Positions 1 through 26,179 of a stretch of 64,000 bases of DNA are shown one piece after another. A program made the translations under genes and the position numbers. Origin of the DNA: Bilabrum cf. latius. Lineage: Eukaryota. Within the stretch, counting starts at the first letter, position 1. Each line of letters starts with the position of its first letter. Below the pieces are notes generated by a model that saw nothing but the letters and a program-made list of their open reading frames with translations, did no database searches and had not been told where the DNA came from. The DNA is taken from contig OZ237740.1 in NCBI GenBank assembly GCA_965178125.1, forward strand, positions 744,001 to 808,000, given 5' to 3'.

Positions 1-32
1 TGAAAATGACTTACAGAACGACTTACGGCGAT

Positions 33-103
33 GTCAGTGGTGGGAATCGAACCCACGACCTTGACTTTGTGAAACAATCACGATATCACTAGACCAAGAC
101 CAC
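33..103 (-). ncRNA. Degenerate tRNA-like sequence / candidate Pol III transcription unit
   Basis: Minus strand has box A-like TGGTCTAGTGA (96-86), variable loop AGGTC and a perfect T-arm GTGGG-TTCGATT-CCCAC (box B, 56-40). A TTTT lies at 6-3. The acceptor stem does not pair and the anticodon stem needs a 2-nt bulge. Confidence 0.5.
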
Positions 104-163
104 AACGCACCAACAGGGTAAAAAAATTATATTTAAATAAATTAAAAAATTCAATACGGGTAC

Positions 164-222
164 GCGCCCAGAATTGCGGAAATATATCTTAAATAGCTAT
201 AATATTACCGCAATTTCGGGCG
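164..222. repeat. 59-bp imperfect palindromic repeat, copy 1 of 6
   Basis: GCGCCCAGAATTGCGG, an AT-rich loop, then CCGCAATTTCGGGCG. Confidence 0.9.
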
Positions 223-257
223 GTCGTATCTTAAAAGATTTTAATACATACGATATC

Positions 258-283
258 ACTTATTAAGTTTTTTATTAATAAGT
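258..283 (-). terminator. Candidate 3'-end hairpin of the primase-helicase gene
   Basis: ACTTATTAA (258-266) and TTAATAAGT (275-283) form a perfect 9-bp stem 6 nt past the TAA stop. Confidence 0.4.
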
Positions 284-289
284 CATAAT

Positions 290-3088
290 TTAATTTTGTT
301 GTTCTAGTGGATCATTATCCTCATCAACAAATAAAGCGGGGTCTAAGTCAACCTCTATCTCTTCATCGGGTAATTGAACCTCTTCATCATCAACAAATAT
401 ATCTACTTCACGAGTCTTTTTCTTGTTAGACCAGATATATTCCATCTCATCAATAATATCCTAATTAAATTCTACATCATAGTTAATTTTCTTTTTCTTA
501 CAAGTCATAAATATGTCTTTCCCAAACATTGATTTATATACTTTAAGTATTTCGTAATAAAGACCTTTATCAGTGGATAAGTCAACTTTACTTCTTCTTT
601 GGCAGTCATACACTGTCCTATATTCATCTGTTAAGTCTTGATCTAATACTTTCTTTTTGATATTATAATCAAGATTAGTTCTTTTAAGACCTAAAGTATC
701 AATCATCTTATTAAGTAAGACTAATTTTCTAGAACTAGACTTAGCATTGATAATATCAAACTCGCCTTTATTAATTGCTTTCACAAGTAAGTGCTTATCA
801 TCTTGTCTAAAGAATTTATTGAAATTAAATAAATTAGATAACTTACCTTTATTAATAAAGTACTCTTTGTATTTGTCAATATCACCTTCATCTAAGTCTA
901 AATATTTATTAATCTTCTTGACATTAAGACAATTAATATCAAAATTTTCAAGTTGTTTTTCTTTAATGGTATCTTTGATTTCTTTATCCTTACATCTGGT
1001 GATCTTAACAGATAAATCATAAGACACGTCATAACCGGTATCAATTAACTACTTGATCATATGTAATTTAGGGTTTGTCTTATAACAATCTACCTTGTAA
1101 AGATAATTACGATATAGTTTCTTGAATATGATTTTAACTTTGCTCATTTCTTCTTCTACTTTGTCTTCTACTTCTACCTCGTTGAAGTCGGGATATGTAT
1201 CACTGACAAATTTAACTAATTCTTCGTAGTCTTTTAAAGAGGTAGCCATAAAAGATTTAACTTGTGAAAGACTTTCATATGTGCTAGATCGTCCTTTCTA
1301 GTAATCAAAAAATATAGTGATATGTGATGGGTTTCTACATCTGTTAAGCTATTGAACCATTTGGGGAGGTGTGATAGTATGACCTTTGAAATAACCAAAG
1401 ACTGGTCTAGTCATAGTGCTATCTATCCCGTAAATGACTTTAGGTGAGAAGATAATGATATCAAACATATCCATATCATAGTCTTTGTCTTCGCTTTCTG
1501 CTGTAAGTATTAAGATTTTATTTAATTTCTTATCTTTCTCGTTATCTATAATTTTAAGACTAATTAACTCATTGATTATATCAGCTTTTGTCTTACTATC
1601 ACTAGCAAGCATAAATTTCTTGTGTTTCATTAACTCATCTCTAAAAGTCTGTTCGTCATTAACAAATACAGTTTTGGTGCCCTTGAACCTGTTTCTGTCA
1701 TTCCTAATATATTGATAATCTAATTTTAATAATTCTAAGAAATATAGAGCATCTTGAGATAAGTCAGCATCTGCTACTATGAACTACTTACAAGTGGTAA
1801 GAGCACGAATAAGAGTAATGAAACTCATTGGTCGCCTACCATATAAAGTCGTAGAACTTAAACAGTGTTCTAAGATACTATTAAACTCATCTAAAAAGAC
1901 AATATAATCCTTAAAGTTATAATTGCTAAGACTAACAATACTTTCAGGAGTAATAACAATACTATCACCCTATTTGTATTTATGGTCTTGATAGAATTTA
2001 GTTGATTTTGGAAGACTACGCATCTATTGCTTACCTAATAAAATACGACTAACAACTGATAAAAAGCTGTCATCTACTCTATTAAATAAATCATTAGCAG
2101 CAGTTGTCTTTCCAGAACCAGCCCCCGACTTAACGGCATAGTTGATACCTTTCTTAAAGAATTTAATATAACGACCTTTGTCGTCAGCAGTCAAATATCT
2201 ACGGTCAATCTTCTAATTGACTTTCTTGACTACTTTATTCTTGAATATCTTGTATCGATAATATAGGCTAAGTCGTTTCTTTTCACTATCTAACTAATTA
2301 AAGAACCATTCAACACATTGAAAAGTGGAATTTTCTAATAATCGAGTAAAAATTATCTTGTTCTTAGTCGACTAATAGCTTTCTACGTCTTGTTTGCTCC
2401 ATTCATCAAATATATCATATACCTTATTACCATCTACTGGATTTAAGTATTTAGCGATATAACTTGTAGCTCTACAAACTAGATGCCAGTTATATGAATT
2501 AGAATAATACTCTTTACCTAATTGATATAAGTATTGTTTGTATTCTTCGGGTTTAATCATATAACGGTAGTCTTCAGCTGTAAGTTGTGGTGAATAGATA
2601 TTTTGTAGTATGAACATCTTGACGTCAGTTGGTATTCTTTTCACGGATGTCTTTTGTATTAGTTCGTATTTCTTACCGTTGATAGAGCTAGGAGGACACA
2701 TGATAAAGCTATCATTTGTGATCACATCTATATGTTCTTTTCTATTTACTGACCTCTTACTAAACTCTTCTTCATACTTAAAATACAAATGATATCCATT
2801 GGGAGACTTGACAGTGTAAGTATTCATCTCTTGAATAAACTTATCAACACTACCATATTCCGCAATAAACTTACCATTTTGAAATTCAGTTTTATTTTTC
2901 TCTTTTTCACAATCTAAGTCAAGGACAAAGAAACCTGCACGTCTTCCAGTAAGTAATCCAACATTAAGATTTGACTTTCTGGTGATAAGTTTAGTAGATT
3001 CCAAATTCTACCAAGACTTAATAAGTGGTTGTTTAGAGTTGTGAGCTATTGAGAAATAAACAGGGTTAGATATGTGTTCGGTCGTCAT
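290..3088 (-). CDS. Prim-Pol primase + PriCT-like domain + SF2 (origin-binding-protein/UL9-like) helicase, 932 aa with TAG=Gln
   Basis: ATG 3088 to TAA 290-292 in one frame, interrupted only by 11 TAGs. Motifs: NVGLLTG..FVLDLD, VKSPNGYHLYF, MCPPS, IFDEWSK; Walker A KSGAGSGKT; VVSR; FLDE; ADADLS; SPKVIYGID; QQLNRCR. Confidence 0.9.
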
Positions 3089-3124
3089 TCTAGTATATAC
3101 TATACTAAAGATAATTTTTTAAGT
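3089..3124 (-). promoter_or_regulatory. Shared upstream motif ACTTAAA..T(A/T)TCT..TATA (also at 3332-3369 and 3574-3606)
   Basis: The same motif starts 36, 38 and 33 nt upstream of the ATGs of the three element genes. Confidence 0.55.
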
Positions 3125-3331
3125 CATTTTCTAGACGCACTATTTTGGCTTAAAGGATTGAGATGGATTTTCGCGCACAACTAGAGTATTTTTAAATTTT
3201 TCAATTTCTGCTGGGGATTTCCCGATTAGTAAATAACTTATAGTCTCTTGAAACTCTATTGGTAAGTCTTGTAATTGATGTATTGGTTTATTGATAACTT
3301 GATTATTTGATTTGGTATCTATTAAATCCAT
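3119..3331 (-). CDS. Small hypothetical viral protein (70 aa with TAG=Gln)
   Basis: ATG 3331, two TAGs near the C-terminus, TAA at 3119-3121; preceded by the shared upstream motif. Confidence 0.55.
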
Positions 3332-3363
3332 TATTAATAATACTATAATAATAGAATATATTT

Positions 3364-3573
3364 TTAAGTCTTATTTAATCCTTCTGTATCTGGTTCATCC
3401 TTAACCTGTTTTCTCTTCTAATAGTACCCCTTCCATTTCTCTTGATTCTTTTGGTAATATTTCTATTTAGCTCTTTTAATAGCTTCTTTCTTTTTGGTCT
3501 CTAATTCCTTGAGTCTTTGATAATCTTCCATAATGTCTTGAACCTATTTTAATACATCTTTAATATCTGGCAT
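3364..3573 (-). CDS. Small basic helical viral protein (69 aa with TAG=Gln)
   Basis: MPDIKDVLKQVQDIMEDYQRLKELETKKKEAIKRAKQKYYQKNQEKWKGYYQKRKQVKDEPDTEGLNKT; 3 TAGs, TAA stop; absent from the ORF track. Confidence 0.7.
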
Positions 3574-3723
3574 TACTATAGTAATATACTAGATAAATCT
3601 TTAAGTTTTTAAAACTAGAAAATGACTTAAAATAAGTGGTATGAGTTAGTGAATATGTAAAATTGAATACGGGTGAGCGCCCAGAATTGCAAACATAATT
3701 TTCTTGATACTTATATATTTCCG

Positions 3724-3798
3724 CAATTTGGGGCGGTCATATCTGGAGATACAATTTGGGGCGGTCATATCTGGAGATACAATTTGGGGCGGTCATAT
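3724..3798. repeat. 28-bp tandem repeat x~2.7
   Basis: CAATTTGGGGCGGTCATATCTGGAGATA at 3724, 3752 and 3780 (partial). Confidence 0.9.
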
Positions 3799-4276
3799 TT
3801 ATTATTAGTTATTTTAAAATATCTCGTCAAGTGGTTAAGTCTTTTTGTGATATCCCGTTAAGTGGTCAATAAAATGAACGGTAAGTCAAAAAAATTAATC
3901 AAAATAAAGAAGTAGTTGATTATTAATTATTGAAGACACCTACGCGCCCAGAATTGCGACAATATCTCTTAATATCCTAATATATTTCCGCAATTTCGGG
4001 CCGTCATTTCTGGACATTTAATATAGCACATACTAGAAATATCTTTATTACAAAATTACACCTCTATAAGATAACTATGTCAAAATTAACAAAATATAAA
4101 ACTCAATACACCTACGCGCCCAGAATTGCGACAATATATCTTAATATCCTAATATATTACCGCAATTTCGGGCGCTAGTATTATACTATACCATATTTAA
4201 TTATCCTATATTTTCCATTTAATCTAGTGATTAATCATTTCAAAGTAATACACTTGACATAAACCAGTTCATTGAG

Positions 4277-4379
4277 TCATTTTAAAGTCATCGTCAAAAC
4301 ATTTATCATTTTTAAGTTATCGTCAAAATATTTATCATTTTAAAGTCATCGTCAAAATATTTATCATTTTTAAGTTATC
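4277..4379. repeat. 29-bp tandem repeat x~3.5 with alternating variants
   Basis: TCATTTTAAAGTCATCGTCAAAA.ATTTA alternating with TCATTTTTAAGTTATCGTCAAAATATTTA. Confidence 0.9.
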
Positions 4380-5127
4380 CCGTTTTGTATTCCTTTATAT
4401 CATATACTCAAACAAAGGACTTAAAACATATTTAAAGAATTATGAAAAATAAAAATCAATACACCTACGCGCCCAGAATTGCGAAAATATATCTTGAATA
4501 GCTATAATATTACCGCAATTTCGGGCGATAGATAAAAGAATGTATTTTTAAGGGGATACCCTTATATTTGAAGTTTTGAAGAGATGACATATAAAAGACT
4601 TTATAAAGTGATTAATATCTCCTTCTAGTTATATTTAAATATTCAATTATTTAAGTATAGATTGACAAGTAATAAAAAAAGAGATAAATTAAGTTGATAT
4701 ATTAGTTTAGTTTTATTTATTAATTTAAATTTTTCATTGGAAGTATTAAAAAGACTTTAATACTTCTGTCAATCTCTTTAAGTATTTATTTAGTTATTTT
4801 CTAAAGTGGTAAATGTCAATTGATACTTAAAACCAAATCATAATATAAAACTCAATACACCTACGCGCCCAGAATTGCACACATATATTCTTAAATGACT
4901 ATATATTTCCGCAATTTCGGGCGGGCATATCCTAAGACTTAGGCTAGGGATTCACTCAACAGATTAAGTAAAGTAAAGGTCTAACAGATAGACATTAACG
5001 GCGCGAAGGTATTAAATTAGGTAGATATATGAATAAATAGCTATTAAATTATTATGTTCAAGTGAAGGACATTATGAAGGACTACGGCTTAAGATGTTGT
5101 GAAGTGGTTAATATTGACCTCATATGT

Positions 5128-5222
5128 TATCCGCCAAAATGTGGAGTTATGATAACTCTATTTCTACTATATAGTAGAAATAGAGTTTACTTATATAAAA
5201 ACTACACACATTTTGGCGGATA
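5128..5222. repeat. Nested terminal hairpin of the element
   Basis: Outer 16-bp perfect inverted repeat (5128-5143 / 5207-5222) enclosing a perfect 34-bp palindrome (5154-5187). Confidence 0.9.
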
Positions 5223-5279
5223 GCCTGCGTGCTGTGCTCCAGTGCTCCCTGCTAGCCACCACCATCGCTCTGCAAACGA

Positions 5280-7355
5280 TTACACCGCCGAGTAGCCGTC
5301 CCAGCCCATGCTGCCCAACCTCATGATCTTCCCATCTACCCTGGCCTTCTGCTTTTCCCTGTACGCCTCGATCTTGTCGAGCATGGAGGCGTCTCCCGTG
5401 CCTAGCATCCTCACGGCCAAAAGAGCGGCATTGTCCGCGTTGCCGATCGCAACGGTTGCAACCGGTACGCCCCTGGGCATCTGCACGATGGAGTGGAGGG
5501 AGTCAACGCCGTCCAGGTGCTTGAGCGGGACCGGCACCCCGATCACGGGGAGTGGGGTCAGCGCGGCGACCATGCCGGGGAGGTGGGCGGCCCCGCCCGC
5601 TGCAGCGATGATGACCCGGATGCCGCGGCCTCGGGCGGCCCTGGCGTACTCAAACATGCGGTCGGGCGTGCGGTGCGCCGACACGACCGTCACTTCGAAC
5701 GGCACCTGCAGGGTCTCGAGCAGCTTGCACGCTGGCTCCATGTGCGGCAGGTCAGAGTCGCTGCCCATGATAATCGCCACGATGGGGGGCTCCACCGTGG
5801 CCAGGGCGTCTCTTGCAGTGCGATGCACCGTTCCGGGGACGGGCTGTTCCCCAGCGACACCAGCACTCTCAGCCGAACCGGAGCCGGCACCGGCCCCGCT
5901 CGCTGCCCCCGACACGGACCCAGACAGGCTCGTATCCCCCGCGTCAGGGGCAGAGGCAGAGGGGCTAGGGGGCGGCACCAAGGCAGGATCGTTCGCCTCA
6001 CAGGGAACACCGGCCCTCCTGGCAGCAGCCAGGCAGCTGAGGAACGAGTGGGATGTCACGGTCAGATGCGCCATCTTGCGGCCTTCTCGCAGTGCCGTCT
6101 TTCCGTACCAGTGCACGCGCAGCCCGCCGTCAAATGGAACGTTCTCTAGAGGTTCCTTGAGTCCCGCCACCATGACCCCTGTGCCAGCCCCGCCCCCTGC
6201 CTCCAGCCCTACCAACCTGCTCCTCAGAGTCTCCGCCTTGGGCTCCTCGACCCCCTCTAGCAGCCACTGGTCGGTCATGCCCCCGAGGATGTTGTACATG
6301 ATGGCCCCCCCCGTGCCCTTCCTGAGTGCAGTGCTGCCAGTGGGCATCCCCGCCAGCACCCTCGCAAGCTGCTCGAACTGGGAGACTCCGCATGCCTCGA
6401 TCGTGTAGTGCCCCGTGTTGTGCGGCCGCGGCGCGCACTCGTTGTACAGCACCCGCCCGTCTTCCAGCTCGAACATCTCAACTCCGACCACGCCCGGGCC
6501 CAGCCAGCGGGAAACCTTCTTGGCCAGGGCCACCGCCCTGTCGGTTGCAACCGCCCCCACGGCGGGGGAGCCCACGTGCGCTTCACGGAGCACAGCGTCC
6601 TGGTGCTGGCTCACCACCACGGGGTACGTGGACACGGACGAATCCGAGGAGAGTCCCGGATCAGAGGTTCCAGCGGGGTTGTTTACGGCCATGATGGCAA
6701 GTTCGCGCACGAAGGGAACCCATTTTTCGGCGTAGAGCCTGAACTGCTCGTCCTCGTCGACGGCAGATGCTCGGGAGGAGTCCACTAGCCCGCCGAGCGA
6801 TGCGACCGCATCGTCGATGCCGTCTTCACTGCGGACTACAGCGTTACCTTTCCCGTCGTATGCTCCTCTGCGGGCCTTGAGTACCACGGGCCAGCCCCAC
6901 TCGCGCCCAGCCGATCGAATGTCGTCGGCTGTTCGAACCAATCGAAAGTCTCCGAGAGGCACACCCTCGTGGCGCAGAGCAACTTTCTGGGAATACTTAT
7001 CCTAGATAATTTGGACTTTCTGCGGTGACGGTACCACGGTGGCACCCGATTCAACTGCTTCTGCTAGGGCCTTGCAGTTGACATGCTCAATCTCAATCGT
7101 AGTTGCCTTGCACTGCGAGACGAGCTGGCGGACCTTGGCCTGGTCCGAAAACGAGCCAAGCATCTATCTCGCTCCCACTTGCGCCGCTGGGCAATTTGGA
7201 GTCGGATCCAGCGCCAAGCAGCTGAGCCCCAGGCTCTGCATGGACTGCACCAGCATCTGCCCCAGCTGGCCTCCGCCAAGGATACCGACATCAAATCTCT
7301 CGTCCTGGCTTACAGGTACCTACTTGGACGAGTCTAAGCCTGCTGCGGCTGCCAT
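5280..7355 (-). CDS. ADE2: Phosphoribosylaminoimidazole carboxylase (PurK-PurE fusion), 691 aa
   Basis: [21 protein letters not shown][TAG][60 protein letters not shown]; 3 TAGs; TAA stop. Confidence 0.95.
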
Positions 7356-7456
7356 ACCGAGTCTTGTGCACGGACTTTGTACGCAAGATGCGGCCGCAAA
7401 ACGGTGAACTCCTATCCGCAGTACAGTGCAATGCTACCAATTAATTGTTCGAAAAT

Positions 7457-10212
7457 GGTCGGCGCCGCGCCCAGGTAGCGGCGACGGGACCGATTTAAGT
7501 GCACGCAACTATTTCGGGGCTTTGGCCAAATCTGGAACCGCCCATTATCTTGGGTAATTTTGGTACAACGTGATAATTAGTCCTATTAAATGATTTAATA
7601 TGATAGTATCGTGTGATATTGGCTGTGGAAAATCCTGTTAGACATCGTGATGCGCACCAGTGATACCATGAAGGGTCAGTACTCCCTGTTGCTTGGGTGC
7701 GGCTACAGACGTACACAAAGAGGGTTTTTGATCAAAACGCCTAGAATCGCACCCAAATCCAAGTAGCCATCGACTGTGATATTATCTGGAAAACGTTTTT
7801 GGTTAGCGTCGTGCCAGGCCTTGCCAAAGGCAATATCGCACTGCCCTGTCCGGGACATACATCCCCTGATTACAGGGCTCATAGGAGTTACTGCGCAAAA
7901 TTGAGCCCGCAAATGTGTATTTTGACTATACTTACATCCCTTGCACCAGTTTGCGTTGAATTGATTTCGTGCCGAACCGCCGGAACTGCACTGGGTCCGC
8001 GAAGTGGAATGCCTGGCGCGGCTGGGCTTCGTTCGAGCCGAACCAAAACGCCCCCTTCGAGCGCATGTCAGCCCGTAGAACCCCGTGACGGCTGAAGACG
8101 AAACCTCAAGACTACCCTCCCGGACCGCGTTGTCGCCGTTGCTATCTGCAATCCCTGCTCCTGTGCCTGCTCGGCTGCGTCCTGCGCTTCCTGGTCCCCC
8201 AGCTCGTCTTCCTGGTCCTTCAGGTCGTCTTCGCCATCGCTGCCGTAGCGTTCAACCCCTTTCTTGTGCATGCCTGACCGCAACCGTTTGCGTTTACTCC
8301 CTGCCGTGATGCTCGAGACCGCGCTTGGCTCGCCTGCTCCTCCCCCCCGCCCAGCGCTGCTTCTTCAATGTCTGCAGCCCGCCCTTTGCCCCCGCTTTTG
8401 GTCTTACCTTTGTTCACGCCCTTCCACCCCTATGCCTTCTTGTCAGCGACGACAAATAGAAACGGCTCCAGGGACAGCTCCATCCAGCGTTCTCTACGAC
8501 AGCCTCCAGCAAGTCTGCTCCAGCCAAACCGGAACAACTGCGAGGCCAGGTCCAGGATCTGATGCTCTCCCGCTTCTCTCTGTACTCGATCAGCAAAAAA
8601 ACGTCTCGGGCAGCATTCTTAGGCTCTGGCACCCCACTAGCGAACCGTCTCTCTCGGTTGGCCAGGATCCACAGCACTGCATGCCAACGCTGCACCAACG
8701 ACCCCACCGAGCAGGGCCGCGCAACCCTGGATCGAGCGACCTTCGCCGCTGGTTGGGCGAGGCTCTCCGCCAGAAAGTGAGCATACCGTTGCCATTGCTC
8801 GGCGCAGACGCTGGGCCGCCGGTCGCCTCACCTCGCATTCTGCCTCGCCACGGGCGCAGCACGAGCACCTCAGGTCGCCCTGGATCCCCTGCCACCCGGC
8901 CCGGTGGTCCAGGTCCCGGAGCCGACCGCGCGGTGCCACAGCTCAACAGCTGCTTTCTAGTTCTCACTGCATCATTTAGATGCCTCATACTTTCCTTGGA
9001 TGTGTCGCATAGCTGCAGAACGAGCGATGAAGTAGCCACGGTCGCACATGCAGAGGCTGCCGCAGATATGCCACCAAGCTATAGATGAACTCCTGCAAGC
9101 GCCAATGCCACATTTTTAGGTGTCCAGCTAGTGATACAGACTTACAGGACACGAAGGTATGCAGAGGTAGGCCTCTTGCCGCGCACGTCCGCCAGTGCAG
9201 CGGCCGCCAGAGACAATGCGCATGCGTATGCGACTGCGCATCGAGCCTCCTCAAGGTAATTTTGCTGCTGCTAGACAATTGCCTCCTCCTTCAGCTTATA
9301 CTAGCGTTGCTACGTCCGTGAATCCAGTTTTAGAGGCTGACCGTCTAAACCTAAGGACCTGTCCGGTTGGCCTACTCGATCTCTTGCCTTGATCGAGGTG
9401 ACTACGTCTGCGAAACTCATTGAAACAGAGCCGTAGCACGTAATCTACAAATACTTTAAAGATAGCGCCATCAACGTCGCCAAATATGCATATTTATCGA
9501 TCATATCAACCAAAATCTGTCAAGCGCACCACCATCTTTGAAGCCCATTTGCAAAAATACGCCATCTTGAATTTCGCTCAAAATCTATCAAACGGAAAAA
9601 ATCCGTACGATGTTGCAGTACACGGACGGAGAAAGTGTGCAATTGGATCGTGGGCACGCCAAGACCCCATGAGGAGACCCTCATTCGGCTGCTACAATCA
9701 GCACAGCGCCCATATACACTCAAGGAAGACAAAAATTGCGCGAAACGCTGTATATTCCGATTCAATTCATACAATTCTACGCAAAACATAGAGAAAACAA
9801 TGCGAAAGCTGCCCAGGTACTGATTTCGGCTCTGCCAGAAAGCTCGCTCGGGAGTGCTACACGTACCACCCGATGCACCATCCATTTTTCAAGATCCGAC
9901 ATAAATAACCCCAAAATATGATATAATGTACAACTCTGTCTGACATAAAAATGGCGGTTTTTGAGATATTGCCTAAATCTCGAGAAAATCGCGATTGAGT
10001 GCCAGGCGAGCAGCGCCTCACCTTGTCGGACGGGCCAGTAGAGCTACTTGCCGGATCCATGACCTCGGATCCAGCGGACCAATCGAATTCAATAATCAAT
10101 TCAATGGTATTGGCATACTCTCGAAAGAATGCATTCAGTGGGAGCCGAGAAAAGTGGCTGTAAAAAATCCGGAACCCTCTCCCGTCGCCGCTGCCTGGGC
10201 GCGGCGCCGACC
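7457..10212. mobile_element. TIR DNA transposon copy A (decayed/non-autonomous), 2756 bp
   Basis: 33-bp TIRs GGTCGGCGCCGCGCCCAGG(T/C)AGCGGCGACGGGA with 1 mismatch; AAAAT on both sides (7452-7456, 10213-10217); frameshifted coding relic on the minus strand (~8068-9420). Confidence 0.85.
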
Positions 10213-19514: not shown

Positions 19515-22500
19515 TCACACGATCAAGGCCCATCTAGGGCCATTCACTACACTGCTTGCCACCGACTCGGCCTTCTCGTACTCGAGCCAAGCCTCGCTTT
19601 CCGCCTCGACCTCAAGCCACTCGTCACACATCCGTCTCTCCCGCACTTCGATCGGAAGGTCCATGGGAATCTCTCGAGGTCCCCGTCCAAGCCCACGTCC
19701 GGCACGCTGCCCGTCTCGCTGGGTCCGCCTGCGTGACTGCCCCCCGTGCTCCTTCGGGTCATTCGGACCTACCCTAGCACTGGCGCCAGTGTCTGCACCA
19801 ACACCACCTTCAGGCAACAGTTGCTCCTTCTGCTCAACCTCGCCCCTCTCTCTGCGCTTCTACTCTCCCGCGGGGCCATCCAGCCTCTTTCCCCGAGGCA
19901 CATCGGAAGCACCCCCTGCTGCAAGGCGGGCCACAGCTGCAATGTCGCCCCGCACTTGCACCCCATCCCTGGTTCCCTAGTCCCCTGTTCTCTGGTCTAG
20001 AAGGTCAGTGGTAGCGCTGCTATGACCAGCGTGCTTCGCCTTGACCCGATCAACATCGCCATTCTTGGCCTCCCTTGTTCCCTGTGGATCATCTTTAGCG
20101 GTCCCAAGGGGCTGCTCGGTGGGCCCGTCCACCTCTTTAGCGGTCCCAAGGGGCTGCTCGGTGGGCCCGTCCACCTCTTTAGCGGTCCCAAGGGGCTGCT
20201 CGGTGGGCCCGTCCACCTCTTTAGCGGTCCCAAGGGGCTGCTCGGTGGGCCCGTCCACCTCTTTAGCGGTCCCAAGGGGCTGCTCGGTGGGCCCGTCCAC
20301 CTCTTTAGCGGTCCCAAGGGGCTGCTCGGTGGGCCCGTCCACCCCGCGACGTGTCACTGCTTTGGCATCATGGTGCTCTTCCAGTGGATCTTGATGCTCT
20401 TCCAGTGGATCTTGCTGGGACATGCCACGCTCATGAGCTGCAGGGAATGCTACCGGCAGAGGGGTCTTCAGCGATGGTCGCGGGTCGCTTACCCGCTGTG
20501 TGTCTCGCGGCGATGATACTGCACCCTGGCCGGCCAACGGCGTTGCTCGATCTACGCTACCTGCAGCGGACATGGGCACATCGTCTACCTTGGACTCTTG
20601 GGCGATGTCTCGCCTTGACTTAGACTTTGTTTGTGCCGACATTGTACCTGGGAGGCTGCTGCCACTAGCACCATTGCCACCAGCACCATCAAAGCTTGCT
20701 GCAGGAGGCAAGGGCACGGGCTCCAGGTGAGCCGACCGAGTCGGGGACCTGGGCGAAAGGGACGGGCTGGCAGACTTGAAAGCAGCTACACGTGATCCCA
20801 CTGCCACGACTTGATCCGTTGCGTGCTGTGGACCTCTTTTGCGGCGACGGGGGGTCAGCACATCCGCTTGTGTATCGCCGGTGGCCACCCCTACCCCTGC
20901 TGGCCCGGTGATTTCAACCTGGTGCTCCTGCAGAACCTCGCTGGCCATTGCTTGGACGGGCTTCTCGTCTGGATGCTGGACCGCTTCGATGATGTCAGCC
21001 TCCATCAGGTTTGAAACAGTTGGTGCATCCACTGCAGAGCCGACAGCGACATCGACGGCGTTGGTACTGTCGTGCTTCCGAGGATTTGCTCCGGCGTGCC
21101 CTCGTCGTTTCCTGCGGCCAGCGCTCTGTGCTGCAACACCTGGCTCCGAGACATTCCTGTCACCGGTATGTCGCGGCACATGGGCTTGCTCTTGTGAATC
21201 CTTCCATTCTTCAACCACTGCAGATACTTCACCGCCAGCGCTACCACTCGGCTGCGCGCTTGAACTGCTCTTGTGCGGCCGGTCGGTTTTGGGGAGCTAG
21301 TCGTCGTGTGGCGTACTAGCAATCCCTGGCGCTTCATGCAAGTCCGATCGTGTAGAGCTGCACACCCCCAATGCGCCGCTGGCGGCTGAAGAGGCAACCC
21401 CATCGCCCTCAGTGTTGGAATTCTGTGCACTGTCCTGCCAGGTACCCACAAAGCTCACGCGTCGCTTCGCTCGCGGTGGTCGCCCTGTCGCGACTGTGCT
21501 TCCATCCTCGCGGGGCTGCGAGACTGGCCCAGCAGGAGCTTTTGAGGTGGTTGTTGCGGTGCTAGCGGACCATTTGGAGGCTCGCACTCGGCTGTGTGTA
21601 CGGCTGGGCACGTTCGCTGCATTGACCGACACATCCGCAGTAAACCGTTGCGCGCCACTGCTGGTCCGCAACTTGATTCTTGCCTAATCCTCGGTCGCAA
21701 TAGGCACGAAATCCTCCTCAATGGCACCGCTAGGACCCTCGATATTCACAGGCTTGGCCTCACCCCCATCCAGGTCGCTATCGGTTGAACCGTCTTCCCA
21801 CCCGCGTGCAGTTGCCCTGTGGCCCCGAGGCTCCTCGCTAGAGAAGCCCTCGATCAGGTAGACGCCGCCTGGACGGACAACCTACTGCAGTTCTGACTCT
21901 GAAATGAGAGATTGAATGCCGCCAGAGGTCTCTCGTGATGCTGGGCCCGCAGCGCCCGGGCTTACCAAGGCGTAGTCCACTCGATTCGACACCTGCCAAC
22001 CAGCTTGCGTGGTTGGGATCACTACTTGTGGCTTTGAAGTGGCCAGAGCAATTGGCAGATTTGAAAGGTGCTGGGGCTCTCCTCTTGCCGGTATCCCTGG
22101 TTGGGCAAGCTAGATCACAGCTGCCTTGTGCTCGCTAGCCATGGCACCATTGTCGGCGCGAGCAGGTTCCGACAAAGACAGCTTGCGAGCTGCTTCCTAC
22201 AAGTCGAGCTCTGATTCGCCATCCTTCGCAGCTTCCACTGGTGTCACTTGGCTAGCCGGACTTGGACTCTTTTTGGCATTAGTAGTAGTTGAAGAGCCCA
22301 TGCCGTTCCCATTCCCACTCTCCTTGTTAATGGCGGAACAGGACACCGCACTCCCAGGTTCTTTCCTCACGACAGGCACGACAGTCGGCTCAGTCACTTT
22401 CATCGGCTGCGGAGGGACAGAAGGTGGCTATACCCCACCGTCCCTTCTTTTGTGCTACGCTGCATCCCTAAGCTTCTGGAGGCGAGCCCGTGCAGCGCTT

Positions 22501-25500
22501 CGGACTGCCCCGGCGCGGGCCTTGGACATCCCAGGCGGGGGCTTGGTTTCGGAAACGGCTGAAGTCGGTTGGTCTGCAGTTGGCTTGCTGCGCCGTATAC
22601 CTCCATGGTGGCTCGTTTCATGGATTGCTTGGGCCTGGTTGGCCGATTCATCGGGCGGATGGTCTGTGCTGGAGACCCTCGCACCCCTAGACTGCACGGA
22701 CCTGTTATCTCTGGCCAACACTTCTGAGGCAGACATGGCTCGCGCGCTCGATACAAGGTGTTGCCTGTCCGCGTCGCCGATTTTCAGTTCTATCGGAATT
22801 ACCTGCTTGCTGGTAGTAGTGCCCGACGCGCTGGCTCGCCCTTCTAGTGGCATTGCAGCGGCAGCAATTGCGAGTGATGCTAGGTGGGTACCTGCGGATG
22901 CTGCCAGCCCCGCCGGCTGATCATTCTACTGAGACTGATGCTATTCTTCTTTATCGCCTGTTGAGTCTGAGCCGCCCGTGTGGTGATGCATTGACCGTTC
23001 GGGCCCTGCTTCCGCGGTCAGGCCCCCTGGGCTCAACTAGGCCATGGCAAGCTGTGGTACCTCGGGAGACTTGATGGGCGCAGCAGCACCACTGTTGCCT
23101 GGGAGCTCGCGTTGCAACTGATCGCTGGCACTGGCACTGGTACTGGTGTACACACGACGGCCCGGGTCGGGCCCAGTCACCTACTAGTCGATCGAAGACC
23201 GTCTGGGTTTGCCAAATCGATGGATTCCTAGCTTGTGTGCAAGCAGAGCAGTAGCAGGGGCATCATTGGCTGGTGCGATCTGATTGCGAGCTAGCAGCTG
23301 GTGCTTCTTCGACTTGGCTCTCTCGGCAAGCATTTTCCTTGAAATGCCTCCAGTCTTGCCGCTCTTGCCACCAGCGATCTTGGCCGATGCTTCAGCGTGC
23401 CGCGGATGCGGGGCCAGAGCGTCGATACCAGACTTAGACATCATGCAGAGTCCCAGAGAGTTGGCTGCACCGGCCAGCAAGCGCCCACGAATGGACCGAA
23501 TGATAGCTGCCGTTCTCCACGGCGCCTTCGGTGCCTCTGCTTCGAAGTCTTTCTCGTCCTCGATGGCAGCCGCACCGATTTCAAACAGGTGCCTATCAGC
23601 TCCGACACCCAGCACGGCAAGAACCGCCATGCACACGAGAGCAACAATGATATCTGCAGAGGCGACCATCTTTCCGCCTGAACTGTGCCCCTCAATGTCA
23701 GAACTGCCCATGCCCTGCCCGAACACTGCATTACAAGTCTGCAGCAATTGGGTAGTGCACAACACGCCGTCGGTCAGCCTCACGACGCCCACAACATCCG
23801 CTGCAGATTGCGCTCCAGTGGCATGCATGCCCTGCGCCACGTGCACCACTGCCGCTTGCCAAATGCCTACGAGGTCCGCTTTCATGGCCGATTTGCCCTG
23901 CACTCCGTTGATAGAGGTCCAGCGCATCCACACCTGCGCTGTCTTCATTCGGTGCAGTCCAGGCCGTGCAACTGCAGTGCTTCCACTATCTCTCGCACTG
24001 CCATCAGCACCGGCAAATAGAGCCTGCAGCCTGCTACAGCATGCACGCAAGACACCATTGGCAAGCGACTCGCCCTGTGCGAGGACCTGCCGCACGCCTG
24101 CCCCTTGTGACGTGTCGATTCTGCACGGTGCGAGCAACGCAGGCACCCACTGCCTCATTATCCACTTCCCGAACCGAGTCCACAGCCCGGTTCTGACCTG
24201 CCTGGGACTCAGTCGCGGCATGATGTGGGGAAGCTAGACGACGGCTAGCGATGTAGGCGCGCCGTAGCCGCTGCTGCTGCCTGCTGCCGCCGCCGTTCTA
24301 GCGATGACATCGAAACGAATAGACACAGGGAGCGTGGACTGAAACCTTCCCACGAATGATGTAGCCACGCCCTCCCTCATCGCATCATATCCTACTGCGC
24401 CAACGGATCGGCGGGATCTGGCTCCTCTTTCAGACTCCTGAGTGCCATTCCCCACAGCAATGCCGTCCAAGCGAGGCAGGCTCCACAGCCACGGCCGGAA
24501 CTGGCCAGCAATAATCACCGGAGTACGGCGGGCTGCATGCTGCCCCTGCCCGGCCAGTGCATCGCTTTGTTTGGACTGCGGTCTTGGTTCGGTCTCCGGA
24601 GCGCCAACTTTGCCTGAGTCCGCTGCTGCACTTGAATCGGCGGCAGCATCTGCGCTGCCGGTGTCGGCAGAGTCGAGCTTACGAGGTGAGACGGCATGCA
24701 CAGGCGAAGAAAGCAGGATGTCCACTGCCCGGAGACCCACGATATCCGAGGCAGATCGAGCACGTCGATGCCCCCTGTGCATTTGCGACACGTCATCCCG
24801 TTCTGTTCCCGAGACAGATGCCTCTGAATCTGCCGCCAACTAGCTAGCAGCGTGCGATCCTGTGCCGGGTGCATGACGTCGTGCCACCGCTCCTCGATTC
24901 CTCTCCCGTCTGCTTCTGCTTCGAGGCCGCCCTCCCCAATCGGAAGACACGCTCCTAGACGAACTTGCTGTTCTCTGCCTGCTTTCCTATTTCGGTGGTC
25001 CAGAGGAACCTGCCTATGCAGCTGGATTTGCCTCGCTTGGAAGCCTCAGCCCGTTGGTATGTGCTGCGGCCCTTCTGCCCCTGAGCCGGTGCCTGTTGCT
25101 CCCATCTACCGAGCGCGCGCGGGGCGACGCTGCGCTAGATGGGCCTGTTGCAGAGGATCGCGCGCCGCGAGGCCTTGCACTCGCGCCGCGTCCACTGGCA
25201 CTATCAACAGCTGGACCAGGCCGCCCCCGCCCCACGAGGGCATCGGCTCGACCGCGCTGGACGGACCGTGCGGATCTGGCGCTATTTGGCGGCACACCGC
25301 CCTGTGCCCCCTACGAATCTTGCATTATTATGCCACGGGTATCCCTAGATCGCTACCGCAGTCTCTTGATTGACCGTTCGTACGCGGTGCGTGCCCTGGT
25401 GGACATGCCAGTGCGCTGGCGAACAGAGCTGGCATCCCCGGTGCTACTCGCAGAGCTTCCGGCGATTGCGCGCCCTCCAGCAAACATTTCTGATCGACTC

Positions 25501-25775
25501 GTGTTGATGGAGTTAACAGATCCCCTCGAAGACCGCGACACACTCCGATACGCTCGTCGGTCTTGCTCGCGAGCAGCAGATGTAGTTCGACCACGACGGC
25601 TTCCTGATGCGCGTTTGGGCGTCTCGAGAGCCGCACTTGACTCATTAATTAATGAATCAGCAACGCCCCGATTCGGCCTGTCGAGTGATTGTTTGGAGTG
25701 CCTCACCAGCAGTCCGCCGTCAACTACAACCTGTTCTGTACCATATTTTCCCTAGAAATCTGCCGCATCGCCCAT
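19515..25775 (-). CDS. Large low-complexity hypothetical protein (~2090 aa with TAG=Gln)
   Basis: Nine ORF-track fragments share one frame and the internal junctions I checked are TAG; ends in TGA at 19515. Start uncertain, and not every gap was checked. Confidence 0.7.
20092..20342. repeat. 42-bp coding minisatellite x6 (KEVDGPTEQPLGTA)
   Basis: Identical units CTCTTTAGCGGTCCCAAGGGGCTGCTCGGTGGGCCCGTCCAC. Confidence 0.95.
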
Positions 25776-26179
25776 TGCATACCGACTCCATCTACGAAAT
25801 GCATTTGATTTCTACCTGAAGCATGCCCTACTGACGACCGCTTGAAACTGCAATGGAAGGGCGGCAAGCGAAGGCGCCACGCAGTGACGACACGAAGATG
25901 CTGCCCAAAGACTTTGTGCCGTCAGCATGCAAATGACTCACGTGAAGTAGAAACAAAGCAGTCAACGCTTCTTTCGTGCGAGGGCCATCAGACATGCTCG
26001 TCGGCTGTGAAATTACAAGCAGCACTCGCGGTCGCATCGCAAAGGTCGATCGATGGTGATGACGAGCGAGCCTTCGTTGGTCGCAATTTGACAACTGATA
26101 CCTAACTAGAATGCAACAACATTGAAACATTAAGACAGACAAAGCAACATGCCGGCTGCTGCGATCGCGCGCGATGACC

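Follow-up and report, generated by a model that had tools for sequence, protein, structure and literature searches.

The window analysed here is a 64,000-nucleotide stretch of Bilabrum cf. latius DNA (contig OZ237740.1 of assembly GCA_965178125.1, positions 744,001 to 808,000 of the forward strand), and its first five kilobases raise a question: what is the AT-rich block that the assembly places just 3' of the host gene ADE2, and how is its virus-type primase-helicase gene, in whose frame TAG codons recur, to be read? The explanation that we favour, at a probability of roughly 0.6, makes the block (about 107-5143) one portion of a mobile element from the pool of virophages and polinton-like viruses (PLVs), with a replication module and a non-coding region that is rich in repeats and possibly terminal. 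No complete virus is present in the window.

The primase-helicase frame (290-3088, minus strand) consists of 932 sense codons followed by a TAA stop and, in an open reading frame (ORF) listing that treats TAG as glutamine, is free of internal TAA and TGA codons. At the base composition of this frame, 932 codons should include 42.6 TAA and 19.0 TGA, and the probability of encountering neither is approximately 2e-28; the five alternative frames of this stretch have 14-79 TAA and 11-60 TGA codons. Eleven TAG codons lie in frame, at residues 27, 239, 265, 292, 355, 373, 435, 580, 597, 680 and 876. These residues convert exactly to the eleven plus-strand coordinates (3008 to 461) of the first-pass annotation, a model-generated reading of the letters that had described a long frame with 11 TAGs and no internal TAA or TGA. 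The motif that it quoted, Q*LNRCR, is present as well, with CAA at Q579 and TAG at Q580 followed by LNRCR, and its view that random decay is unlikely agrees both with the above probability and with the intact catalytic motifs. On the same two grounds, a decayed pseudogene was rejected. Gene callers using the standard code would break the primase-helicase gene into 12 pieces.

The residue specified by these TAG codons was approached through an alignment of 13 sequences, termed A1, and through a codon comparison with 22 IMG/VR loci that comprised 23 high-scoring segment pairs. The homologous frames of the 22 loci are open under the standard code, with no stop in any of the 23 segment pairs. Three columns of A1 (355, 579 and 580) are invariant for glutamine in the family, and the window gene uses TAG at 355 and 580. 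Column 355 is Gln in 10/10 distant proteins and is encoded by CAA or CAG in 21 of the 22 loci, the remaining one having His; column 580 is Gln in 10/10 distant proteins and CAA or CAG in 22/22 loci. A further TAG occupies column 435, which is Gln in 7/10 distant proteins and in 6/22 loci. TAG on an invariant glutamine column is the strongest possible kind of support for glutamine, and the assignment of TAG to glutamine in the first-pass annotation is upheld by the use of TAG at two of three such columns where standard-code relatives have CAA or CAG. Two observations count against this assignment. Site 680 is Ile or Leu in 10/10 distant proteins and in 18/21 loci, and eight further TAG sites fall in variable columns, so only two to three of the 11 TAG sites speak for glutamine. 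The earlier proposal that arbitrary residues at the TAG sites would contradict glutamine therefore meets a divided picture, with invariant Gln at 355 and 580 on one side and site 680 and the eight variable columns on the other. Leucine, which is hinted at by sites 680 and 435, was rejected because it clashes with the invariant columns 355 and 580. With TAG counted in, the predicted glutamine codons of the gene are CAA (24), TAG (11) and CAG (1), such that 11 of 36 are TAG. UAG in the primase-helicase gene is thus predicted to be read as glutamine, and the gene is translatable only if UAG specifies an amino acid.

The flanking host DNA can be read in the same manner. Eleven long, intron-free host ORFs of 540-2340 codons (the longest encoding 2339 residues), whose limits are mechanical and come from the ORF listing rather than from curated gene models, were read with TAG as a sense codon. 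Together they contain 107 in-frame TAG vs 462 CAG and 144 CAA codons, and they terminate with TGA eight times, with TAA three times and never with TAG. Several of them carry eukaryotic domains, for example DSPc, HEAT repeats and SpoU. In ADE2, the host gene nearest to the block, TAG118 falls on the Gln of an I-Q-D-K motif, a column that is Gln in 31/31 aligned ADE2 sequences; residue 118 is likewise Gln in 4/4 printed PDB alignments. The best named ADE2 matches are approximately 40-44% identical over the full length, and there is a 70% local match to Cafeteria. Because of the ADE2 TAG118 column, the 107 sense TAGs and the TGA and TAA ends, the host nuclear code appears to assign UAG alone to glutamine, as in NCBI table 15, and to keep UAA and UGA as stops, as the first-pass annotation had held. 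No tRNA was called in the window by ARAGORN. The element obeys the same rule, with all three of its ORFs ending in TAA and none containing TAA in frame. The sense use of TAG in the element, together with the same rule in the host, argues for a long evolution of the element inside a variant-code lineage. As a separate matter, the UAG-only code of the host itself (window positions 5223-64000) may be a finding in its own right.

The product of the gene is predicted, from its sequence and its modelled fold, to be a replication initiator with an N-terminal Prim-Pol primase and a UL9-like SF2 helicase. In the primase part, residues D57, D59, G98, H100 and D121, which we take to represent the acidic/His catalytic motifs named DxD, GxH and hD, are invariant across A1 (13/13 sequences) and occur in the window protein as well, and the family profile matches the Prim-Pol domain of pRN1 ORF904 (E 4.6e-5). 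In the helicase part, the residues invariant in A1 are G324, G326, K327, T328, D400, E401, Q579, Q580, R583 and R585, all of which occur in the window protein. The predicted gene is therefore intact and keeps every family-invariant catalytic residue.

Profile and structure comparisons converge on the same type of helicase. PHROG 4913, annotated as 'replication', matches residues 306-714 (E 1.6e-24), and the family profile matches UL9 chains with E 3e-5 over profile positions 311-447 only. A phmmer search of the PDB with the single protein yielded no relative; profile searches found some. Pfam PF02399 (Herpes_ori_bp) gives no match on the window protein at E up to 0.1; it is present in a distant homologue, P0015, and PF04851 or PF00270 is found in two others, P0013 and P0014. 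The AlphaFold (AF2) model of the window protein has a pLDDT of 76.6. Foldseek ranks 1-4 are taken by 9hgj and 9hgi, structures of the herpes simplex virus 1 (HSV-1) origin-binding protein bound to OriS, with 9hgj at the top (E 6.6e-14). VIA-align superposed model residues 279-713 on residues 30-538 of 9hgj chain A with a Z of 19.0 and a root-mean-square deviation of 3.7 over 383 aligned residues. UL9 structures scored Z values of 19.0 and 18.6 vs at most 16.3 for other SF2 helicases (about 16 for generic DEAD-box proteins). The aligned range ends at model residue 713 and UL9 chain residue 538, and it includes no match to the C-terminal DNA-binding domain of UL9. These profile and fold matches to UL9 indicate that the helicase is an SF2 enzyme of the UL9 kind and not of the D5/SF3 kind. 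The latter was rejected, as both profile and fold point to SF2 and only P0008 among the homologues carries PF08707.

The relatives of this protein point to a virus gene pool. The close relatives in the protein collection, P0003 (87% identical) and P0004 (84%), are both on short Logan contigs, and ten distant relatives are 25-33% identical. Scanning IMG/VR with the alignment retrieved the 22 loci, on contigs of 10-26 kb with 26-43% GC, whose proteins are collinear with the window protein over the full length at 24-31% identity. Locus L001 encodes a Sputnik-type major capsid protein (MCP; PF21915 and PF22031) together with a V18/19 penton, and L007 encodes a Capsid_N protein, as assigned by Pfam to representatives of shared ORF families. 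Extended by BLAST families, Sputnik-type MCP or penton genes are found in 5/22 loci (L001, L003, L004, L005 and, with the penton only, L020) and Capsid_N-type genes in 6/22 (L006, L007, L009, L012, L014 and L015). The remaining 11 loci have neither capsid type within the stretch examined. In a quick IQ-TREE maximum-likelihood tree of 30 rows, the clade of the window protein (P0001, P0003 and P0004) has an SH-aLRT of 100 and lies inside a ten-row clade, also with an SH-aLRT of 100, that includes the virophage-type L001, L002/P0008, P0005 and P0136-P0138. The window clade is more than 60% diverged from everything else.

Other searches define the breadth of the family. An exhaustive HMMER scan returned 948 representative clusters at E <= 1e-3, the nearest beyond the protein's own cluster being 33-37% identical. 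A scan of viral contigs with the single protein found no relative, a result superseded by the profile searches, and a search of JGI metagenomes for close relatives gave only four distant loci at 21-24% identity. Phage and plasmid collections yielded single-domain matches only, with query coverage not exceeding 17% and 29%, respectively. The helicase part (residues 318-587) is 24-25% identical to plasmid replication proteins of the CyRepA1 family (H12-H14, from Leptolyngbya plasmids). The distant homologue P0015 is a cyanobacterial protein that combines DUF3854 with Herpes_ori_bp. This protein and the CyRepA1 likeness suggest a wider family of replication initiators common to plasmids and eukaryotic viruses.

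The block that contains the gene is set off by its composition. Up to about position 5220 the DNA has 27-32% GC vs 46-70% in the rest of the window, with a sharp switch at 5222/5223, and no second AT-rich island of comparable size occurs in the 64 kb. In minus-strand order, the block comprises about 1.6 kb without credible ORFs, ORF69, ORF70, the primase-helicase gene, one hairpin unit and the flank (Table 1).

Table 1 Features of the AT-rich block and of the adjacent host DNA, in window coordinates.
Feature	Position	Strand	Description
AT-rich element	about 107-5143		About 30% GC; left end set by divergence of a contig of sequencing run X7, right end by the stop of a high-depth repeat contig
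Flank of intermediate GC, outside the AT-rich element	1-106	-	tRNA-like remnant at about 29-89, with a perfect T-arm and 3' acceptor half
Hairpin unit	124-226	+	14-nt GC-rich inverted arms CGCCCAGAATTGCG / CGCAATTTCGGGCG, AT-rich spacer of about 31 nt; 89% like 4429-4531
Primase-helicase gene	290-3088	-	Predicted Prim-Pol (AEP) primase fused to UL9-like SF2 helicase; 932 aa, 11 TAG, TAA stop
SF2 helicase core, aa 279-713	950-2254	-	GxGKT 324-328, DEFN 400-403, QQxxRxR 579-585 (Q580 = TAG)
Prim-Pol domain, aa 13-153	2630-3052	-	Pfam PF09250, 52.7 bits vs cut-off of 22.8
Promoter-like motif ACTTAAA..TAT..TATAGTA	3089-3140	-	Just upstream of the primase-helicase ATG; also at 3332-3383 and 3574-3625, before the small ORFs
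Putative small ORF70	3119-3331	-	70 aa, 2 TAG, TAA stop; upstream motif common with the other two ORFs
Putative small ORF69	3364-3573	-	69 aa, Lys/Glu/Gln-rich, 3 TAG, TAA stop
Non-coding repeat region	3637-4927	+	Five hairpin units: 3637-3739, 3904-4006, 4076-4178, 4429-4531, 4825-4927
Tandem repeat, 28 bp x3	3724-3807		Within the non-coding repeat region
Tandem repeat, 29 bp x3	4277-4379		Within the non-coding repeat region
Compound palindrome at GC switch	5128-5222		Outer 16-nt arms 5128-5143 / 5207-5222; perfect 34-nt inner palindrome 5154-5187
Host ADE2 (PurK-PurE fusion)	5280-7355	-	691 aa, 3 in-frame TAG, TAA stop; nearest host gene, control for the host code

When the stretches upstream of the three ORFs are aligned, 26 columns are invariant, and the motif ends 0-9 nt before the ATG. 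This putative promoter is the sole support for the two small ORFs. ORF70 has no homologue in the protein collection, and comparison of ORF69 and ORF70 with the 22 loci gave nothing better than E 0.3. All six hairpin units have the same orientation, with invariant 14-nt arms and a variable AT-rich spacer, and as single-stranded DNA they fold with z values of -2.9 to -6.1. The repeat region at 3637-4927 contains no ATG-start ORF of at least 62 residues, and, as regards terminal inverted repeats, no inverted second copy is present within the window. A pattern search with the hairpin motif matched neither viral nor metagenome contigs (0 each). Two of the related loci have hairpins of their own, three each and in AT-rich DNA, at 47, 9703 and 12773 in L005 and at 5180, 7686 and 15490 in L009; two of the L005 hairpins flank the primase-helicase gene, as in the window.

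The palindrome at 5128-5222 folds with -29.5 kcal/mol (z -9.1) and lies 58 nt beyond the ADE2 stop; it may belong to the element, to the host or to both. In the left flank, Rfam reports a partial tmRNA/tRNA-like match at 29-89 on the minus strand, with 20 bits and under the gathering score. This stretch forms no cloverleaf and folds no better than shuffled sequences; among its possible origins are a tRNA-derived repeat and an old target of integration.

A herpesvirus origin consists of an AT-rich stretch flanked by UL9 boxes. The arms and spacer of the hairpin units resemble this arrangement, and the units or the iterons are therefore candidates for origin-like sites served by the UL9-like initiator. 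Presumably, the protein would bind the tandem iterons or, in the hairpin units, the inverted GC-rich arms, and by analogy to UL9 at herpesvirus origins it might then melt the AT-rich spacers and prime DNA synthesis. The three ORFs would be transcribed from the common ACTTAAA..TATAGTA promoter. The window copy may represent a partial derivative of a larger element, with further copies in the same cultures.

Sequencing runs bear on the last point. Six runs hold at least half of the sampled words of window positions 1-8000, and four of these, from four studies (X1, X5, X7 and X8), were compared using Logan contigs only; no RNA data set was listed among the runs containing these words. Contig k-mer depth is a contig mean that is sensitive to GC and is not a copy number, so the following values are a hint only. 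In X1, the gene contig (259-3722) has a depth of 4.33 vs 3.52 for the adjacent host contig (5193 onward); in X5, the gene contig (259-3644, 4 differences) has a depth of 504 vs 49.9 for the ADE2 contig (0 differences), approximately ten-fold higher. Unique pieces of the repeat region (3769-5143) are roughly twice as deep as the gene contig, both in X1 (9.07-10.5 vs 4.33) and in X5 (950-1095 vs 504), which would be compatible with terminal inverted repeats or another region carried twice by each genome. Three substitutions in ORF69 separate the copy in X1 and X5 from that in the window, as do a 58-bp difference in a tandem repeat and an indel of 1 nt. ORF69 of the X1/X5 copy has TAG in place of L24 (TTA), a two-base change at 3502-3503 that adds an in-frame TAG, and the substitution R34K. 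The X5 gene contig (3785 bp) runs on for 399 nt to the left of position 259 into AT-rich DNA unlike the window, and loose ends in X1 and X5 show the hairpin unit beside many other AT-rich flanks. Taken together, these observations hint that the same cultures contain other copies of the element, and larger ones. The first-pass annotation had advised a check for episomal copies, and the contig depths, up to about ten-fold in X5, go some way towards it as a hint of extra copies, depth not being copy number. Organelle DNA was rejected as the source of the block: the gene has no in-frame TGA, it follows the code of the host's nuclear genes, and its depth relative to the host contig varies ten-fold from run to run.

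The other two runs inform on the ends of the block. One X7 contig matches positions 1-106 and then diverges, and another matches 5125-5183 and diverges leftward; the divergent X7 sequences (at 106 and 5125) and the X5 sequence (at 259) are found nowhere else in the window. In X7 and X8, the ADE2 flank is covered without differences and no contig falls on 268-5073, an absence of cover that is not evidence for absence of the element. X7 contigs cover 5125-5222, and a high-depth element-side contig of X5 spans 4842-5143, which includes part of the palindrome.

Two observations concern the host DNA only. The stretch at 7480-8000, upstream of ADE2, probably represents a dispersed host repeat: its X5 depth is 242-455, compared with 50 for ADE2, and three runs show many variant letters in it. 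A host ORF at 19515-25928 (minus strand, 2137 codons, 22 TAGs) has no Pfam domain and includes six tandem copies of the 14-residue unit VDGPTEQPLGTAKE.

Several findings weigh against assigning the block to the virophage/PLV pool. Positions 107-5143 hold no ORF for a capsid, penton, packaging ATPase, protease or integrase, and no ORF besides the three listed in Table 1. The link to virophages and PLVs is made by one gene at 24-31% identity, whose helicase part also resembles the cyanobacterial CyRepA1 plasmid replication proteins, and fusions of AEP and SF2 helicase are described in giant viruses too (10.1101/2024.02.29.582850). The small ORFs are without relatives, and ORFs of 60-93 residues are frequent by chance in this DNA; comparable repeated families of GC-rich hairpins were found in only 2/26 related loci, L005 and L009. 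Among the contigs listed, none bridges 5143-5193, at the putative right-hand junction of integration. The first-pass annotation fares accordingly. Its intact primase-helicase of virus type stands, with the Pfam Prim-Pol match, the UL9 profile and fold matches, the full set of catalytic residues and relatives on contigs with virophage or polinton-like capsid genes, as do its two small genes with five more TAGs, counted here as 2 and 3, and TAA ends. Its 'intact DNA virus' is not borne out, as the approximately 5 kb of the element in the window have no ORF for capsid, penton, packaging ATPase, protease or integrase, and the dependence on a giant helper virus that it raised as a condition is conjectural.

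The missing bridge at the palindrome also raises an assembly mis-join, in which AT-rich DNA of a free episome or virus genome from the same culture became attached to the host contig by way of the palindrome or the repeats. Such an error would explain why the host contigs of all four runs start inside the palindrome, at 5156 or 5193, and why, on the element side, the contigs listed end at 5121 or 5143; it would also fit the ten-fold element depth in X5, the differences between the X1/X5 copy and the window copy, and the departure of the X5 gene contig from the window at 259. However, a perfect 34-nt palindrome breaks de Bruijn contigs whatever the biology, so the contig breaks prove nothing, and the lack of a bridging contig holds among the matches listed only. 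The depths of element and host in X1 are similar, and an X1 contig of host-like depth that begins 677 nt to the left of the window and reaches position 113 follows the window rather than X7 for 7 nt past position 106. We consider a mis-join unlikely, and in either case the code match, with TAG as sense and TAA as stop, ties the element to the host. The absence of capsid genes would be explained if the block were a minimal plasmid-like replicon of about 4-5 kb, with two small genes beside the initiator gene, an origin made of iterons and hairpins, and an ability to integrate by recombination. It displays replication functions and iterated repeats only, many relatives are on contigs of 3.3-5.2 kb (P0003, P0004, P0006, P0007, P0010-P0013, L023 and L024), and its helicase and Prim-Pol parts resemble CyRepA1 plasmid proteins and plasmid pRN1 ORF904, respectively. 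Short contigs are, however, usual in metagenomes, and L023, L024 and six other loci have no terminal direct or inverted repeat. The 399-nt extension of the X5 gene contig into AT-rich DNA outside the window, and the hairpin unit beside many other AT-rich flanks in X1 and X5, suggest a larger genome, and relatives on long contigs encode capsids. A replicon of this kind is accordingly improbable in our judgement.

We give very little credence to a third source, a fragment of a giant-virus (Nucleocytoviricota) genome or a giant endogenous viral element (EVE). The contigs that carry the 22 IMG/VR relatives all measure 10-26 kb, the nearest relatives in the tree include a contig with a Sputnik-type capsid, and the AT-rich DNA amounts to only 5 kb of the 64-kb window. 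These points stand against AT-rich DNA with dispersed hairpins, against the fusions of AEP with UL9-related SF2 helicases described for mimivirus R8, pF1055L of African swine fever virus (ASFV) and mriyaviruses (10.1101/2024.02.29.582850), and against a 2026 catalogue that reports giant-virus metagenome-assembled genomes fitting alternative codes (PMC13524828).

The favoured assignment to the virophage/PLV pool can tentatively be carried further, to a claim that we regard as possible but doubtful. The block would then be one copy of an active, replicating virophage or PLV whose whole proteome needs UAG to be glutamine, which is present in several copies per cell, as episome or virions, in some cultures of this GC-rich protist, and whose origins, recognised by its primase with a fused UL9-like origin-binding helicase, are the many hairpin units with GC-rich arms. 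If this were true, a eukaryotic double-stranded DNA virus lineage would be locked to a host with UAG-only reassignment, and, should the element be a true virophage, its giant helper virus, so far unseen, would likewise have to depend on that code for translation.

Variant genetic codes are regarded as barriers to viruses and mobile DNA, and the element would have crossed such a barrier or co-evolved with it. Since 11 of 36 glutamine codons are TAG, including two glutamines of catalytic motifs, the gene should not be expressed in a standard-code cell and would be tied to its host lineage. The element marks a poorly sampled protist and a widespread family of virus replication initiators (the 948 representative clusters). 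Its interest lies in the co-evolution of host, virus and code, of which the window shows one module, not a virus.

Comparable systems are known. The Tlr1/Maverick-type elements of Tetrahymena are virus-like, integrated and dependent on the ciliate code (TAA and TAG) for their ORFs, in another host lineage and with another code. The SF2 core of the window protein is nearest to herpesvirus UL9, as judged from the Z and profile values given above, and the N-terminal AEP fusion recalls mimivirus R8, ASFV pF1055L and the mriyavirus SF2_hel by the description in the paper cited above (10.1101/2024.02.29.582850). 'Pri-Hel' is a common gene of PLVs and virophages according to Bellas et al. 2023 (PMC10120064). 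The Pri-Hel proteins of L001-L022 share with the window the Prim-Pol domain, the SF2 helicase, a helical C-terminal region, the catalytic columns and an AT-rich genome; unlike the window gene, theirs are open in the standard code and linked to capsid genes. The closest precedent is found in Streblomastix strix, whose EVEs use the host table with TAA and TAG as glutamine, which was read in that report as a long-term association (PMC10120064). As there, a virus-type gene in a protist genome uses the reassigned stop of the host as glutamine. The Streblomastix case involves TAA as well as TAG and has MCP genes as its evidence, whereas here TAG only is reassigned (TAA stops three ORFs) and the evidence is a replication gene, with no capsid gene in the window. 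A literature search, limited in coverage, found no paper on a virophage-type element with UAG-only reassignment. The principle has thus already been reported for the Streblomastix elements, and the present case adds another example; what is new here is a host that reassigns UAG only, the use of TAG for catalytic glutamines in a replication gene of virophage type, and hints of non-integrated or multiple copies.

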